Source: a virus (lineage: Duplodnaviria > Caudoviricetes). Taken from it: DNA of 64,000 nucleotides. Position 1 is the first letter of the stretch, and every line of letters begins with the position of its first letter. The stretch covers positions 1-64,000 of IMG/VR virus record IMGVR_UViG_3300026549_000029. One strand, given 5' to 3'. Below the pieces are notes generated by a model, which searched no databases, was not told the origin of the DNA, and worked only from the letters and a program-made list of their open reading frames with translations. The position numbers and the translations under genes are program-made. Of this stretch, positions 4,605 to 35,057 are shown piece by piece.

Positions 4605-4985
4605 GTGTATATGACTAAACCTAATAATACTGGTCTTTCTTGGAGACAAGTATGGTTTGAATTATTGAATGGACGGAAGATTAAACGTCCTACTTGGAAA
4701 GGGTATTGGATTTGGGAAAATAATACAATTATGATGTATTGTGCTGATGGAAATATTCTTGATATTAGAGAAACAGAGAATCCTGCTTATACCTTTACTA
4801 ATATTGCAAGTAATGATTGGGAAATTCTTCCTGATAATTATGAGTATAAGCCTTATGCTTCTCCTAATAAAAAGAAAGAAAAAGAAGATGCAGATAAAGC
4901 TGTTTCCGAATGGCTCAATAGTTCTATTGATTCATCAGCAACAGCAAATTGTACTATTGATAGAGAATCTATGTCTGGAGATTGA
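4605..4985 (+). CDS. DUF2829-like (Tad2-like) protein
   Basis: L-x-x-G-R-K-I-K-R-x-x-W-x-G...IASNDWEI pattern typical of DUF2829. Confidence 0.55.
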   Translation: MYMTKPNNTGLSWRQVWFELLNGRKIKRPTWKGYWIWENNTIMMYCADGNILDIRETENPAYTFTNIASNDWEILPDNYEYKPYASPNKKKEKEDADKAVSEWLNSSIDSSATANCTIDRESMSGD

Positions 4986-4989
4986 TAAT

Positions 4990-7333
4990 ATGTCATTAGA
5001 AAAAATTAAATATGGATCTTTATTTCAGGATTCTCATAATAAAAATAATTTTCTTCATTATGATGATAAAGATATAGTATCTACATCTTTTACTTATCCT
5101 CATAGTGATGAATATGAATATGAATCTTATATAGAATATATTGATTTTGATGCTGAACGAAAACTTGATATTGATTCTGGTAATGGATTTGAAGTAGCTC
5201 CTTCTGGAAGAAATATTAAGAAAGATTTGAAAGCAGAAGATGGATTATTCTCTAGAAGATTTGGACAAACATTAGCAGATGTTAATCCTTTTATTGATAG
5301 ATATCGTTGTCATTGTACAGATGATGGTGGATTAAGAGGAAGAATTAATGCTGGATTGCGTTGTCCTAGATGTGGTCATTTATGTGAATATGTAGATGAT
5401 AACTTTAGTTATTTTGGTTGGATGGTCTTAAAAGATCCATTTGTAATTATTCATCCTGCATTTTATAAGAAAATAGATACTTTCTTAGGAAGAGGAATTA
5501 CTATACAGGGAGTAAAAAGAACTAAATTAGAAAATATTCTTGATATTTCAGATATAGTAACTCCTTTATCTAGTAAAGCTATTGAGACTAAGATGAAGGA
5601 CGAACCCTATTTTGGAATTGGTATGGTTGAATTTGTAAAGAAATTTGATGAGATTATGGATTTTTATTTGCGAAAAAGACCTACTAAAAAAGAAAATTAT
5701 GATGATATTTATGAACACAGAAATATAGTATTTACACATAGTATACCAGTATTTACTACGTTATTAAGACCATTTGATATTAAGGATGGTAATATGACAT
5801 ATGAACCTACTAATGCTATGTATACTATGATGAATAAATTAGTTACTACTATAAATAAGAATCAAACTAAGATACAAAGAGAACCAAAAATTAAGAATCA
5901 GCAATTATATAATTTACAGAAGAAATTCATGGAATTATATACAGAGCTGGAAACAATATTAAGTGGTAAAAAAGGAGACTTTAGATGTTTATTAGGGGGA
6001 AGATATAACTTTAGTAGTAGAAATGTTATAGTACAGAACCCTGATTTAAGAATTGATGAGGTGACATTACCTGTCATAGGACTCAGTATTATGCTTGAAC
6101 AGAGAATAAAAAATATACTGTGTAGATTATATAATATGAGTCCTAATGAAGCCCATCAATTATGGTATAAATCTACAATAGAACCTGTAGATAGAATAAG
6201 TAGTATAATACAGAGCATAATAGATAATGAAAAAGCCAAGGGATTACCCGGCTTAATAGTACTAATAAATAGGAACCCTAAATTGTGGGGCATTAGGGGG
6301 AAACTCCTAAATGAAAACTGTGTGAATTGCTGGAAGTAGCTAATGCCTCTATGCCTATATGGAGAGAAATCAGAAATAAGTTAGAGGATTAGAGAAGGAT
6401 AAAAAATAATTCCTAACTCTTGTACAATGCTTAATCAGCAGCCAAGCTCTATATAAAAATATAGAGAAGGTTCAACGACTATCCAAGAGGAGTAGAGTTA
6501 GCAAATAACTCGAAGTGCATAGTACCTAAGTCTAATAATATTAGATATGGTAAAGATATAGTCTAAAAATAAGATAAATGACAATTTCATATGGATTATA
6601 ATATTAGTCCCATTTAATATGAAAATATTAAATGAAAACTGTGTGAATTGCTGGAAAATCCTAAAGCTCTCTTGCCTATATATTAGGAGCGAAAGCAGAA
6701 ATAAGTAGAGAGATGATCTATGCTGAGATAAAAGCTATATTATTATATAATATAGTGCTAAGGATTATTAACAATGGATAATCAGCAGCCAAATCTTTAT
6801 AATGTAAAGAAGGTTCAACGACTATCTCTGATGAATGTAAGAGAGTAGGGCTTAAGTAAGCTCGAAGTGCACAGCACCTAAACTAAATATATTTAGCATG
6901 GTGATGATATAGTCTAGTCTCTATTGAAAGAATAGAGTAGTTCATAAAAGAACAGTATAAAGCTAACAACTTTATATGACTTAACGCAATATTATGCATG
7001 TTCTGTATTGGTTTTACTGAGACTTATACCATGGCATTACCGCTTCAGATTTTGCCGCTATTGGCTGCAGACTTTGACGGCGACGTTCTCAATATTCTTC
7101 TTCCTATAAATCAAACTTTTATTAAGCTTGCTTGGGAGAAATTTAATCCTAGAAATGTTATGTATATATCTAGGAATGATGGTTATTTTAACTCTGCTGT
7201 ATCTATGCAGAGAGATACACTTATTAATGCTAATACATTAGCTCGTTGTGGTAGAGATACTTATACTCAAGAAGATTTAGAGAATTTTGATAAACTTTTT
7301 AAGCTTAAAGAATCTCTACTTAAATCTTATTAA
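4990..7333 (+). CDS. multisubunit RNA polymerase beta-prime N-terminal subunit, join(4990..6279,6581..6596,6987..7333)
   Basis: Zn-finger CHC...CPRC, GKKGDFR...GGRYNFSSRNVI; spliced product reads NRNPTISYGSILCMFC...LAADFDGD (catalytic motif). Confidence 0.93.
6280..6580 (+). mobile_element. group I intron 1 in RNAP beta-prime gene (no ORF)
   Basis: Exon ends in U, intron ends in G; core GAATTGCTGGAA, AATCAGCAG, TTCAACGACTA, AAGATATAGTC; 6280-6286 AAATTGT is exactly complementary to the next exon ACAATTT (P10). Confidence 0.92.
6597..6986 (+). mobile_element. group I intron 2 in RNAP beta-prime gene (no ORF)
   Basis: P1 GGAU/GUCC with U-G pair at 6596; same core motifs as intron 1; ATAATATT pairs with exon 3 AATATTAT; terminal G 6986 restores the frame (T+CA = Ser). 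Confidence 0.92.
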
Positions 7334-8019: not shown

Positions 8020-8449
8020 AATAAAATTATCTGAATTACCTAAATATAAATTTGATTCTATAATAAATAATATGGAAAAAGAATTTGGAGTAGATATTGA
8101 TAAAAATAATAATATTACAATTGATATTTTTATTGATAGAAATTCTGGTATTAATGCTACTATAACTAATAAATTTAATGTAAGTAAAAAGAATAAAGAT
8201 GAATTACTAAGATATAATTTAATAGAATTTTTAAATGCTCATATATCTTATAATTTTGGAAGTCAAATAGATGTAAGAACTTTATATGAAAATTATAAGA
8301 ATTGGTGTACTTACAGAAATATTTCATATTATCAAAATATGTCTTTCATTAAGACAGACTGGTTTACAAAATTTTTATCAGACAGAGGTATGTCAACAAA
8401 TAATAATGTTATATTCAATGCTATATATGGTATAGTAACTAGAATATAG
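8006..8449 (+). CDS. hypothetical protein, possible C-terminal winged-helix (LYENYKNWC)
   Basis: Motif like the C-terminal domain of D5-type primase/helicases. Confidence 0.4.
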   Translation: MRKVEIKLSELPKYKFDSIINNMEKEFGVDIDKNNNITIDIFIDRNSGINATITNKFNVSKKNKDELLRYNLIEFLNAHISYNFGSQIDVRTLYENYKNWCTYRNISYYQNMSFIKTDWFTKFLSDRGMSTNNNVIFNAIYGIVTRI

Positions 8450-16717: not shown

Positions 16718-16818
16718 TTATTAGAGACTCCTCTTATAATAGATTATTGGGATGTTTTTCTAATATTACTGATTAAACTAGCAAATAATATTATATATAG
16801 AAAGGAATATATATAAAT

Positions 16819-17100
16819 ATGAATAATAATATAGAAATGCCAAATGATGATGATATTATTAGAATTAAATCTGAACAAGATGAAAAAATAGATAATAGTA
16901 CAGAAATAACTGAATTTAGAAACGAATTAGTAAGAACAATAAATAGTAAAGCTACTAGATACTCATTAAGAGAAATTGCTAATTTATTAGTTTATAATGA
17001 TAAAAATACATTTGATAGAGAATTTTTTGATGTTAATGATATATTTGAAATTATAGATGAATTATTTATTAAATATATAAAAAATAAAGAGGGAGATTAA
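16819..17100 (+). CDS. hypothetical protein
   Basis: ORF between an AACT-N6-TAAT motif and a terminator. Confidence 0.55.
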   Translation: MNNNIEMPNDDDIIRIKSEQDEKIDNSTEITEFRNELVRTINSKATRYSLREIANLLVYNDKNTFDREFFDVNDIFEIIDELFIKYIKNKEGD

Positions 17101-31595: not shown

Positions 31596-33389
31596 ATGAA
31601 AAAAGTATCTAAACACCCAATGAAAAAATCTGAGTTAGATCGATTAAAACCGATTATACAGGAGAAACTGGTTATGAAAGGAGTGTCAAACCGAGCTATG
31701 AGAGAGATTGCTAATGAACTTGGTATAGATGCCGGATTAGTTGTAAAAATTAAACAGAGAACTGATTCTAATTTTTATAAGAAAGAACCAGTTCCAGTTG
31801 CAACTGAGACATCTATTCAGACAGTAGCGATGCCAGTTTTGACAGAAGCTATACCTGTTCCAGAACTGGAGGATGCAAAAGAAGAAAAAGAAAAAGATCT
31901 TAATGAAAGAAAAAGATTACAACTCGATAAAGTAAGAGAAAAAGCTATTACAGCAAAGAAGCATTTTTTAACAGCAGAAGAAAAAAAGAACCTTATTAGA
32001 GATTATAAAAGTGGTAAATATTCTCAGCAGAAACTTGCAGACATTTATGATGTCTGTACTGGTACAGTAGGAAATATTCTTAAGAAAGCAAAAACGAAAG
32101 AGGGTGAGGGAATGAAAAGAAAGGGTAAGATTACAACTAAGAGGAATAGAGATAATAAGAAACGGCAGCCTATCATTCCCAAATCAAATACTTCTATTGT
32201 AACTACAAATACTACTGCAGAAAATGCTGAAATTTATGCAGTAGTTAAGTTTGTCACTGACATCCCAGTATATGAAAAAGAATTGATAAATAAAAAGAAT
32301 ATTATCTGGGCACTATCGAAAAATAGGGATATTAGTGATCTTGGACCTGATCTTTATATTAACTCAAAAAATGATATGAGGAAAATCAATGATCTGAGAG
32401 GAAGATATTATTTAGTATCTTTCTCAAATAATAAGCTGCAGTTAATTGATTTCTTTGATGAGACAAATAAAGAAATCATTCCATATGCTCAGGAGACATC
32501 TATCCTTTATGAAAATGAGGATGGGATTATTAGTAATAGTCAGATTGTAGAAGCAATTAAAATCATTTTAAAGTATGATAAATCCATTGAAAGAAGTAGA
32601 CTTAGATTAGATGATTTTGTACTTGATCCTTCTAAGTTCACTAATCTGCAGAGAATTTTCGGTTTTGATAAATTCTCTTTCAATCTTGCTTCTAAAAATA
32701 ATTCAGTAACTGTAGAAGCAGGATTGGTAGCAGATAGGCATAATATGCCTGTTGGAAGATTCATTTATCCTGAAGCATTATCTCAGGATTTGATGTTTAA
32801 CTATCCTGAGCAGGAAAGAATTGCTCAGGATTTTCTGAAAGCAAATTTCGATTTTGATCCTGATAGTAATGATAAAAGGATCAAAGTTTTAAAATTGTAT
32901 ATTACTGGAATGCAGTGTGCTTTTGCTGCTGTGATGAAGGTGTGTACAGAGATGGGGGTTAATCTAGTTGCAATGCATTATAACTCTGCAACTGGAGGGT
33001 ATGTTCCCCAGTATATTGTGGGACAGGCAGAAGAAACTGGAGCATATGTGAAAGGATTTGATAGAATTCTTTCACAGAAAAGTCTTAATGGAGACATTCT
33101 TCTGTTTAATTGTACTTATGAAGATTTCTCTGAGACTAATATTGACAACTTTTATATCATGGAAGCTGCCAAAATGAGAAATACAAGTAGTACAGATAAC
33201 CAGAAGGATGAAAGCATTATAATTGTGATTAAGAAAAGGGAAGATATTTGGAAGATCTATCCTACTGTATTAGATCACATTATAGATAATGATGGACTTA
33301 ATCTGGCAGTATGGGTAACCACTGCTCGGATTAAGGAGAATAATCTTCAGTGGGGAATGAATATAATTAAGTCATTTAATTATAAATAA
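31596..33389 (+). CDS. multi-HTH protein with C-terminal CARF/Csx3-like Rossmann domain (tentative)
   Basis: HTHs SNRAMREIANELGI and SQQKLADIYDVCTGTV; GL...RH.MP...LYITG...HY motif. Confidence 0.5.
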   Translation: MKKVSKHPMKKSELDRLKPIIQEKLVMKGVSNRAMREIANELGIDAGLVVKIKQRTDSNFYKKEPVPVATETSIQTVAMPVLTEAIPVPELEDAKEEKEKDLNERKRLQLDKVREKAITAKKHFLTAEEKKNLIRDYKSGKYSQQKLADIYDVCTGTVGNILKKAKTKEGEGMKRKGKITTKRNRDNKKRQPIIPKSNTSIVTTNTTAENAEIYAVVKFVTDIPVYEKELINKKNIIWALSKNRDISDLGPDLYINSKNDMRKINDLRGRYYLVSFSNNKLQLIDFFDETNKEIIPYAQETSILYENEDGIISNSQIVEAIKIILKYDKSIERSRLRLDDFVLDPSKFTNLQRIFGFDKFSFNLASKNNSVTVEAGLVADRHNMPVGRFIYPEALSQDLMFNYPEQERIAQDFLKANFDFDPDSNDKRIKVLKLYITGMQCAFAAVMKVCTEMGVNLVAMHYNSATGGYVPQYIVGQAEETGAYVKGFDRILSQKSLNGDILLFNCTYEDFSETNIDNFYIMEAAKMRNTSSTDNQKDESIIIVIKKREDIWKIYPTVLDHIIDNDGLNLAVWVTTARIKENNLQWGMNIIKSFNYK

Positions 33390-33481
33390 TAACATTTAAA
33401 GGGTGGGTATAAAATAATAATTTACTACTCCTGTAACTAATAAATACAAAGTTGCAGGAGTAGTAAAGTAAAAGATAAAAA

Positions 33482-33893
33482 GGTCTTATTGGATATTATA
33501 CATATATTTTATGTATAGGTAGTTTCGATTACTGTCAAGACTATTAGTATCACAGAGTTATTTCCGAAATATGAAGTAGGATAGTAATAAAGGTTTTGGT
33601 TATAAGCAATAGCTCTGGCTAACCAATTTATTATTTATTATAAAATAATAAGCCTTGTTATAAAGCTGTGATGCAAAGAGCTTTAGGAAATGAGTTTTGA
33701 TATATTTTGTAATTTCCTAATATAATGATGGAAAAAATATATCTGGGCAAAGATTTAATATTTATTAAAACTCTAATAAGTATTAAATTGTCCACCACTT
33801 GAGTAACCTATTGAAGAGTGGTATCTAGTATTTATTATGGTACTAGATGTTTTTATATATAATAATAGACTGATCAACTAATATTATATATAG
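33482..33893 (+). ncRNA. candidate large structured ncRNA A (pseudoknotted)
   Basis: ORF-free, nested helices and two crossing pairings (see findings). Confidence 0.55.
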
Positions 33894-33914
33894 ATAAAAA
33901 TACATAATACAATA

Positions 33915-33988
33915 CGGGGTGTAGTTCAGCTCAGTAGAACGCTTGATCTGGGATCAAGAGGCCGTGGGAGCGAAGCCCACCACTCCGA
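33915..33988 (+). tRNA. tRNA-Pro(UGG), atypical (C33, T-loop AGCGAAG), no encoded CCA
   Basis: Full cloverleaf: CGGGGTG/CACTCCG, CTTGA-TCTGGGA-TCAAG. Confidence 0.8.
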
Positions 33989-33989
33989 T

Positions 33990-34270
33990 GCCTAGCATAT
34001 AAAAATATTTTATATAGCTAACCTGGAGGGCCAGGCGTTTGGGTTAATACGACATAACCCATTATTTAGTGAAAGAGTGATTGGGCAATACTTCCATTAT
34101 CATGGTGCAGACATGCATAGTATTTATAGAGGAGGTCCCTATAAATATAAAAGGCCAATCTAGGATAGAATCTTCGGATAATCACTGCAGGATACAGTGT
34201 GAACTGAGCATGATAAGACTATCTGAAATTCGGATCATGAGTTAGTCATGGTGGATGCATCATGCAGTAT
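33990..34270 (+). ncRNA. candidate structured ncRNA B between tRNA-Pro and tRNA-Ile2
   Basis: GC-richer than the genome, several hairpins and long-range pairings. Confidence 0.5.
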
Positions 34271-34279
34271 ATTAATTTT

Positions 34280-34353
34280 GGAGCATTAGCTCAGTTGGTC
34301 AGAGCAGTCGGCTCATAACCGATCGGTCCCAGATTCAAATTCTGGATGCTCCA
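34280..34353 (+). tRNA. tRNA with CAU anticodon, likely Ile2 (lysidine) rather than Met
   Basis: Cloverleaf GGAGCAT/ATGCTCC; arm GTCGG-CTCATAA-CCGAT resembles Firmicute tRNA-Ile2. Confidence 0.85.
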
Positions 34354-34362
34354 CTCTATCTA

Positions 34363-34435
34363 CTCATGGTAGTCAAGCAGTAAAACACAGGACCTTAAAT
34401 CCTGCATTTTGATGTTTCGATTACATCATACCCTA
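34363..34435 (+). pseudogene. degenerate tRNA (Gln-like) with UUA anticodon and unpaired acceptor stem
   Basis: CAGGA-CCTTAAA-TCCTG and GATGT-TTCGATT-ACATC arms intact; 5' acceptor strand does not pair. Confidence 0.55.
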
Positions 34436-34466
34436 TTATTTTTTGTAATTAAAAAGGATAATAAAT

Positions 34467-35057
34467 ATGTCAGAATATAAAAGAGTTTCTTGTCCAAAAG
34501 ATCATCCAAAATATAAAAATAATGGAAAAAGACAAAGAATAGGTGAACATATTTTAATAGCAGAAAAGAAGATTGGAAGATATTTAAAAGATAATGAAGT
34601 TGTTCATCATATTGATGAAAATAAAAAGAATAATAATCCTAATAATCTAATTGTATTTAAAAATGGATCATATCATACATCTTTTCATGATGGAGCAAAA
34701 TTAATACAATTAAATGATGGAACATATATAACAGAAAGAAAAACTATAACAGTAAAAACGGAAAATAATAAACGTGGTGTAAAAGTAATTTGTCCAGTAT
34801 GTAATAAAAATTATATGAATAATTTATCATCTATGTGCAGAGAATGTTATATTAAATCAAATAAAAATTTTAATTATGATATTCCAGAAAAAGAAAAATT
34901 AATAAATAATTTTGTGGAAAATGATTTTAATAAATCTAGAATAGCAAGATTATATAATGTATCTCAAAACTCAATAAGAAAATGGTGTAAAAAATATAAT
35001 ATAAAAGATGTTATAATTAATATTAATATGAGTAAACCTACTAAAGAACGAAAATAA
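34467..35057 (+). CDS. free-standing HNH homing endonuclease (HNH + Zn ribbon + HTH)
   Basis: EH..IAE...VVHHIDENKKNN..NNL...H..FH; CPVC..CREC; IARLYNVS..SIRKW. Confidence 0.88.
   Translation: MSEYKRVSCPKDHPKYKNNGKRQRIGEHILIAEKKIGRYLKDNEVVHHIDENKKNNNPNNLIVFKNGSYHTSFHDGAKLIQLNDGTYITERKTITVKTENNKRGVKVICPVCNKNYMNNLSSMCRECYIKSNKNFNYDIPEKEKLINNFVENDFNKSRIARLYNVSQNSIRKWCKKYNIKDVIININMSKPTKERK

Follow-up and report, generated by a model that had tools for sequence, protein, structure and literature searches.

A conserved element between a phage gene and a tRNA island

The window analyzed here comprises the first 64 kb (64,000 nt) of a 287,868-bp IMG/VR virus record (IMGVR_UViG_3300026549_000029; ~27% G+C) that is estimated to be complete. 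Few of the window proteins matched Pfam or PHROGs, suggesting that the record represents a divergent uncultured jumbo phage. On the + strand, the gene of a 597-aa protein (31596-33389), which has no Pfam family and only a weak HTH/transposase-like PHROG match, is followed by an ORF-free gap (33390-33914) and then by tRNA-Pro(UGG) (33915-33988, called by ARAGORN and scoring 52.2 bits against Rfam tRNA), which opens a tRNA island. Next in the island come spacer B (291 nt), tRNA-Met(CAU), a gene for an HNH endonuclease, spacer C (745 nt), and tRNA-Gln, -Lys, and -Leu. The original prediction had placed in the gap a structured RNA of ~410 nt at 33482-33893, noncoding and with two pseudoknots. We found that these limits cover the structured core, but that the conserved element is longer. 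It spans ~490 nt of the + strand (33423-33914), from a hairpin (H0) to the last base before tRNA-Pro, and we refer to it as A. The noncoding status stands: there are zero + strand ORFs of at least 40 aa, none is conserved among homologues, and the short ORFs found in the homologues differ from one to another.

We collected homologues of A by identifying relatives of the flanking 597-aa protein and then their contigs; one lineage (L005) was found through a separate locus search with the same protein. The 12 relatives of the protein had 43%-95% identity, and the synteny of this protein family held even though identities dropped to 42%. The succession of gene, gene-free gap, and tRNA-Pro was seen in 13 out of 13 distinct lineages. 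A was present in nine distinct sequences (the window, L230, L308, L237, L232, L233, L235, L005, and L241), with tRNA-Pro directly after it in seven and a B-type element coming first in L005 and L241. It was absent from L236, L238, L239, and L310, in which a B-type element alone lies between the gene and tRNA-Pro; these phages retain look-alikes of the H0 5' arm and loop only. Since four related lineages lack A while retaining B and the tRNAs, we consider that A, as judged from this distribution, is an accessory module.

Beyond these loci, a blastn search against 50,697 phage records matched the tRNA-Met part only. Exact-pattern scans of IMG/VR, JGI metagenomes, and GTDB species genomes, filtered with blastn/nhmmer, recovered A in the L005 lineage alone; the remaining exact-pattern matches were discarded as chance or coding sequence. 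A is single-copy in the phage genome, where searching with an nhmmer profile returned no second copy. The conservation of A was 71%-96% overall, beside a protein at 50% identity, and the two were out of step: between the window and L237, A was identical at 88% of aligned positions (flanking protein 50%), compared with 85% for L232 (protein 86%) and 71% for L005 (protein 50%). This pattern suggests strong purifying selection, module exchange between phages, or both.

HNH homing-endonuclease genes occupy sites that vary by relative (window 34467-35057; L235 6040-6567; L237 3414-3917; L239 3841-4353; L308 3694-4242) inside the tRNA island, which thus looks like a hot spot where endonucleases insert and mosaicism arises. 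The slot of tRNA-Met(CAU) (34280-34354) holds tRNA-Ile(UAU) in five relatives (L236, L237, L238, L239, and L308), suggesting that the CAU tRNA of the window is probably an AUA-reading tRNA-Ile2 that needs lysidine modification, the relatives having switched to a UAU anticodon. A sub-threshold tRNA-like remnant lies at 34370-34427 (Rfam tRNA 24.7 bits, E = 0.018), and its anticodon-loop-like CCTTAAA would set UUA, an ochre-reading triplet, as the anticodon. Elsewhere in the window, two matches to group I introns lie side by side (6270-6937; scores of 61 and 73 bits), at and just past the 3' end of ORF 4741-6339, suggestive of an intron-split gene.

Predicted architecture of A

The predicted fold of A is a chain of ~15 helices on the + strand, comprising a tRNA-shaped junction, a multibranch domain, two pseudoknots, and four further hairpins. 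Every stem quoted in the original prediction was recovered by direct reading, with each strand at its position and complementary as claimed. We tested each hand-defined helix in each of the nine sequences. H0, H1, H1b, H2, PK1, PK2-S1, PK2-S2, H6, and H7 pair in nine out of nine, the lone exception being a C.A mismatch in H6 of L235.

A opens with H0 (33423-33465), a 16-bp hairpin (TACTACTCCTGTAACT / AGTTGCAGGAGTAGTA, one U.G pair, 11-nt loop) whose stem is invariant in nine out of nine sequences. It begins 34 nt past the stop codon of the 597-aa gene and is followed by A-rich sequence with no U-tract. H0 may serve as a 5' protective or processing hairpin, or it may mark a module boundary.

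Domain 1 (33482-33542) is predicted to form a tRNA-shaped three-way junction of H1, H1a, and H1b. In H1 (GGTCTT 33482-87 / AAGACT 33537-42), L005/L241 have UA in place of CG and AU in place of UA, and H1a (33497-33517) is a variable hairpin with a loop of 3-11 nt across homologues. H1b (GGTAGT 33518-23 / ACTGTC 33531-36) is 100% paired, with double changes in three of its six pairs; its variants are GGTAGT/ACTGTC, GACAGT/ACTGTC, AGCAGT/GCTGCT, and AGTAGT/ACTACT. The heptaloop of H1b (TTCGATT 33524-30; UUCAAUU in two sequences) follows a T-loop pattern, and an ATTGG motif (AUUGG in RNA) is conserved in the junction. H1b meets the 3' strand of H1 without a linker, giving a stack of 6+6 bp. For all this resemblance, there was no Rfam tRNA match over A (E ≤ 10), and ARAGORN at default settings called a tRNA in none of the nine sequences; under relaxed settings (-ps80), it called domain 1 tRNA-like in four out of nine, with inconsistent anticodons. 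We conclude from these searches and the predicted pairing that domain 1 is tRNA-shaped, not a tRNA.

Domain 2 (33547-33674) is a predicted multibranch domain that holds H3, H4, H4b, and H5 and is closed by H2, a 9-bp helix with one G.U pair (GTATCACAG 33547-55 / CTGTGATGC 33666-74) that is 100% paired, with two double changes and three wobble changes. H3 (33557-65/33579-88) has four double changes and H5 (33628-36/33643-51) has two, while H4 (33590-93/33653-56) and H4b (33596-602/33620-26) are 81%-88% paired. The interior of the domain is rearranged in L005/L241, making the peripheral helices H4 and H4b less certain. The first pseudoknot, PK1, pairs AGCTCT (33611-16) in an internal loop of domain 2 with AGAGCT (33677-82), which begins 2 nt past H2. 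All six pairs form in nine out of nine sequences. The outer pair is A-U in four, G-C in L232, and G.U in L233/L235; in L005/L241 the helix reads CGTTCT/AGAACG, with the 5' strand at a shifted position.

The second pseudoknot, PK2 (33683-33743), is of the H type, with window loops of 7 (L1), 3 (L2), and 13 nt (L3). Its stem S1 (TTAGGAAAT 33683-91 / ATTTCCTAA 33712-20) is 100% paired and has changed from G-C to U-A in L005/L241, from G-C to A-U in L230, and to G.U in L233; the variants are TTAGGAAAT/ATTTCCTAA, TTAGAAAAT/ATTTTCTAA, and TTATGAAAT/ATTTCATAA. The stem S2 (GATATATTTT 33699-708 / AAAATATATC 33734-43), which crosses S1, shows A-U to G-C in L232/L233/L235 and a matched 1-nt deletion on both strands in L005/L241 (GATAATTT/AAATTATC), so that its variants are GATATATTTT/AAAATATATC, GTATATTTT/AAAATATAC, and GATAATTT/AAATTATC. 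Across homologues, the stems measure 9 and 8-10 bp and the loops 7, 3, and 9-17 nt. With such dimensions, the simultaneous formation of both stems should be sterically feasible.

The hairpins that had been predicted to continue up to tRNA-Pro are also present. The H6 domain (33744-33794; 98%-100% paired) pairs TGGGC 33744-48 with GTCCA 33790-94 and, further in, GATT 33752-55 with AATT 33786-89. Its closing pair is C-G, U.G, or U-A, an inner pair changes from U-A to C-G, the tip varies in length, and the flanks TCTGGGYAAAGAT and RTCCACCA are nearly invariant. H6 directly adjoins both PK2-S2 and H7 (CCAC 33795-98 / GTGG 33818-21). The hairpin enclosed by H7 is almost entirely missing from the window, and one of the H7 pairs is C-G in four sequences and U-A in five, a split (CCAC/GTGG vs. 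CCAT/ATGG) that runs even between close relatives. There is no linker at the junctions PK1/PK2-S1, PK2-S2/H6, H6/H7, and H7/H8, suggesting continuous coaxial stacking.

H8 (TATCTAGTA 33822-30 / TACTAGATG 33841-49) has three double-change pairs and a nearly invariant loop, TTTATTATGG. It is followed by H9, a 16-bp A/U-rich hairpin (33852-64/33882-94 and 33866-68/33878-80) that is 100% paired; four out of four one-sided changes in H9 lead to U.G or C-G on the + strand, and one double change replaces G-C with A-U. The 9-nt loop of H9 (ACTGATCAA) contains an invariant palindrome, TGATCA (UGAUCA). A 3' tail, TAAAAATACATAATACAATA (33895-33914), links H9 to the first base of tRNA-Pro; within it, ATAAAAATACATAATA is invariant in nine out of nine sequences, and the invariant tail AUAAAAAUACAUAAUA reaches the tRNA.

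A could also be read as a cis-acting leader of the tRNA operon, possible in our view but on the improbable side. Such a leader would be a sensor or processing platform for read-through into, or maturation of, the downstream tRNAs, either with H8 and the U-run at 33850-54 as an attenuator or with a fold that presents the tRNA 5' end to RNase P. A is always directly upstream of a tRNA or a B leader, and a B-type leader occupies the same slot where A is missing. Domain 1 has a T-loop-like hairpin and a GG junction; T-loops and GG junctions of this kind dock tRNA elbows. TTTTT follows H8 in seven out of nine sequences. An intrinsic terminator scan listed neither H0 nor H8; the stem of H8 has two G-C pairs, and the TTTTT after it covaries as part of H9, where it serves as the 5' strand. 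Against the leader reading, a loop as nearly invariant as that of H8 is uncommon in terminators. In two sequences, L230 and L308, TTTCT replaces the U-run and improves H9 pairing (U.G to C-G), which indicates that what constrains the Ts is their part in a helix, not a U-tract. Moreover, ~330 nt of B separate A from the tRNA in L005/L241, A exceeds 400 nt and is far above known attenuator size, and no cis-regulatory model, T-box included, matched in the Rfam searches given below.

Compensatory changes and the functional strand

We quantified the support for the fold with a model of 129 pairs in 17 helices, with the pseudoknots encoded as crossing brackets, over a MAFFT alignment of the nine sequences (A3). 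Pairing was found in 96.0% of cells (91.5 ± 0.4 in shuffles), 26 pairs had double changes (13.2 ± 2.3 in shuffles), and the covariation score was 0.223 (0.140 in shuffles), with none of 500 shuffles reaching the observed value of any of the three, under a control that ignores relatedness among sequences representing ~4-5 independent lineages. With only nine distinct sequences from so few lineages, covariation has limited power; on the other hand, the model figures are conservative, owing to MAFFT gap misplacement for L005/L241 in PK2-S2, H1, and domain 2. When partners were slid by one to three columns, only 33%-50% of cells were paired and one to eight pairs had double changes. Independently of the hand-defined helices, RNAalifold run on eight sequences returned 111 pairs, 21 of which had compensatory double changes. 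We dropped its pairs 473-476/514-517, which compete with the covarying H7, and an ATTA/TAAT closing helix that is invariant throughout.

Covariation across the nine homologues backs both pseudoknots, as the original prediction would have it. By these comparisons, we regard the predicted helices H1b, H2, H3, PK2, H7, and H8 as well supported, and PK1, H4, and H4b as moderately supported. H0 and the 3' tail never vary, and covariation thus cannot place either in the RNA.

Folding energies are in line with a structured molecule. The + strand of the 412-nt core had a minimum free energy (MFE) of -103.9 kcal/mol (z = -4.87; 0 out of 100 shuffles were as good), compared with -76 kcal/mol (z = -4.20) for the - strand. 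The single-sequence MFE fold itself was set aside, as it conflicts with covariation-supported helices in domain 1 and at H7. AT-rich sequence makes many hairpins, and the - strand also folds better than its shuffles, in keeping with a well-folding spacer or the decayed remnant of a tRNA or gene. We find such a chance origin scarcely credible for an element that is 71%-96% identical beside a 50% identical protein, contains 26 double-change pairs, and gave no tRNA, tmRNA, or ORF signal at default settings.

The strand can be read from the wobble pairs. G.U occupied 98 cells (in 32 pairs) compared with 13 for A.C, the latter mostly in misaligned L005 columns. In H2, too, every one-sided change yields G.U. 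The excess of G.U indicates that the functional molecule is the + strand RNA, and neither double-stranded DNA nor antisense RNA.

This asymmetry also weighs on the notion that the hairpins act mainly on DNA, either as promoter or operator palindromes or as the borders of an exchanged cassette, with the middle simply carried along. Short regulatory cassettes known as PeSLs (promoter-early stem-loops), which combine a conserved stem-loop with promoter-like sequence at module boundaries, are documented in T4-type phages (PMC2839356). H0 and H9 resemble such boundaries: together with the tail, they are the most invariant parts of A, and the phylogenies of A and its neighbor do not agree, the mismatch in identity being suggestive of module exchange. 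Strings like TATTATATATAG also occur 22-30 nt before several start codons. A DNA-level role for all of A is nevertheless very unlikely in our judgment, because ~350 nt of covarying RNA structure lie between the conserved ends; this interior is densely compensatory and includes two crossing helices, none of which a DNA signal needs, and one-sided changes give G.U, not A.C. Sigma-70-like matches, too, were no commoner than in shuffles (18 vs. 18.9). The DNA-level reading may still hold for H0 and H9 only, alongside an RNA.

A look-alike of H9 is found elsewhere in the window (16751-16813; 77% identity over 63 nt), ~30 nt before a small + strand ORF at 16819. This copy may be a shared regulatory module or a promoter or operator palindrome, and its place before a protein gene means that H9 could be a DNA-level signal.

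From a sigma-70-like site at 33389-33418, transcription would begin at H0; given the shuffle counts, this site is a candidate alone. A search for a phage promoter motif by k-mer enrichment upstream of genes gave only the ribosome-binding site and a single family of repeats, which is unrelated to A. We also noted a repeat motif, CTATGACGCTTAC...TATGCTATATATAATATATGGC, upstream of a gene family starting ATGGCAATAAAATGGGG and present in at least eight gene upstream regions. It recurs at genome positions ~151, 284158, 286575, and 287778 (- strand), and L005 has a comparable string before a similar gene (8030-8090). The motif may be a strong promoter for a multigene family located near the genome ends.

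Known RNA families and a possible role for A

The original prediction had been unable to assign its RNA to a family, and our Rfam scans likewise gave no assignment. No family matched A at the gathering score (whole window), at E ≤ 10 (33300-34500), or at E ≤ 1 (L005, L232, L235, and L237); matches at those thresholds were tRNAs and chance hits alone. Neither the GOLLD covariance model, which represents the conserved 3' domain, nor the ROOL model had a match in the window (E ≤ 10) or in these four relatives (E ≤ 1). The same scans gave no match to tmRNA, for which ARAGORN -m was also negative in nine out of nine sequences, to the T-box with its specifier loop and antiterminator bulge, or to bacterial RNase P RNA (CR-I to CR-V, P4 pseudoknot), of which highly reduced forms could escape the models. 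In contrast to a T-box setting, the genes after A are tRNAs, not aminoacyl-tRNA synthetase or amino-acid genes. At the sequence level, the one feature that defines GOLLD, ROOL, RNase P RNA, tmRNA, or the T-box is such a match, which A lacked in these scans. Judged by sequence and covariation, A is a structured RNA family that is new and fits none yet described, and the jumbo phages that carry it form a small clade, AT-rich and uncultured.

The closest likenesses are to GOLLD and ROOL, RNAs of phages and prophages that are often found near tRNA islands and whose function is unknown (10.1101/2024.12.08.627333; PMC5737381). GOLLD is a large, multi-pseudoknotted noncoding RNA, often beside tRNA islands and sometimes tRNA-linked (10.1101/2024.12.08.627333; PMC5737381). 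A shares this setting, located in a 288-kb virus record and directly adjoining tRNA-Pro; such a context does not by itself make an RNA a GOLLD member, and at 410-490 nt A is about half the size of GOLLD (>800 nt) and has no embedded tRNA. ROOL (Rumen-Originating, Ornate, Large) is of similar size (mean 581 nt) and also has multistem junctions and pseudoknots. However, ROOL contains six multistem junctions, whereas A is a linear helix chain with an H-type pseudoknot, and ROOL is spread across several phyla, whereas A has so far been seen in nine sequences of one phage clade. Both GOLLD and ROOL self-assemble into a closed homo-oligomeric cage; the single hint of oligomerization in A is the palindromic H9 loop, UGAUCA.

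The tRNA cluster of phage T4 encodes two stable non-tRNA RNAs of unknown function, species 1 and species 2. They are expected to be cut from a tRNA precursor, as A would be, but at ~120-140 nt they are much smaller, have no known sequence relation to A, and are not reported to contain pseudoknots.

The original prediction had further proposed that A and B could form one ~800-nt GOLLD-like RNA with an embedded tRNA. The conserved core of B (34073-34279; AGAGTGATTGGGCAATACTTCC ... GAGTTAGTCAYGGTGGATGCA) was found in 13 out of 13 lineages, always ending at a tRNA 5' end, and had no match to an Rfam family. The B element spans 33989-34279 in the window, 6500-6712 and 6830-6950 in L005, 3046-3255 in L236, and 1898-2050 and 2215-2420 in L310. 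In phages without A, it takes A's place before tRNA-Pro. A, tRNA-Pro, and B follow one another without a break on the same strand, no recognizable terminator intervenes, and GOLLD linkers sometimes have tRNAs inside (10.1101/2024.12.08.627333). We nonetheless consider a single giant RNA highly improbable. B is present in all 13 lineages and A in nine, so that four have B without A, and the order varies, from A-tRNAPro-B in the window and its closer relatives to A-B-tRNAPro in L005 and L241; both observations suggest that A and B are independent modules. The negative GOLLD and ROOL searches point the same way, and RNase P normally would cut such a precursor at the tRNA. It is plausible, from their arrangement, that A, the tRNA, and B share one primary transcript.

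We lean toward a reading in which A is co-transcribed with the island, has its 3' end freed by RNase P, and accumulates as a free accessory RNA. A, which leads the tRNA island, would share a + strand transcript with tRNA-Pro just downstream. RNase P cleaves at tRNA 5' ends as part of general tRNA biology, and a cut at 33914/33915 would release the 3' end of A. The 5' end would be defined or protected by H0, or generated by RNase P-type cleavage ahead of domain 1, which is tRNA-like. Once released, A would be a free-standing stable accessory RNA, not a switch for a neighboring gene, with a lifestyle like that of GOLLD, ROOL, and the stable non-tRNA RNAs of the T4 tRNA cluster. Some relatives lack A, suggesting that it is probably not an essential part of tRNA expression; we think of it as probably a host-interaction or fitness factor, inessential to tRNA expression.

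An extension of this idea, decidedly unlikely as we see it, would make A a third independent class of tRNA-island-linked 'ornate' phage RNA, a self-associating RNA-only machine that engages tRNA factors as a decoy or scaffold. A would self-associate via the palindromic loop of H9, UGAUCA, which is laid out like a retroviral dimerization-initiation loop. The tRNA-shaped domain, with its 12-bp stack, T-loop, and GG junction, would engage a tRNA-recognizing host factor, candidates being RNase P, a CCA-adding or modification enzyme, and an anticodon nuclease of antiphage defense. As a decoy or scaffold, A would protect or channel the phage tRNAs.

Large, highly structured bacterial and phage RNAs without known function are rare, and GOLLD, ROOL, OLE, and raiA have each rewarded structural study. 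To these, A adds a jumbo-phage example that is compact, clearly bounded, and supported by covariation. Its size (~410 nt), zero-linker junctions, and H-type pseudoknot make it tractable for cryo-EM and chemical probing, and the presence/absence variants (nine lineages with A and four without, at otherwise syntenic loci) offer a ready genetic contrast. Finally, with A, another ornate RNA is found beside tRNAs, and the still unexplained association of such RNAs with phage tRNA islands gains strength.
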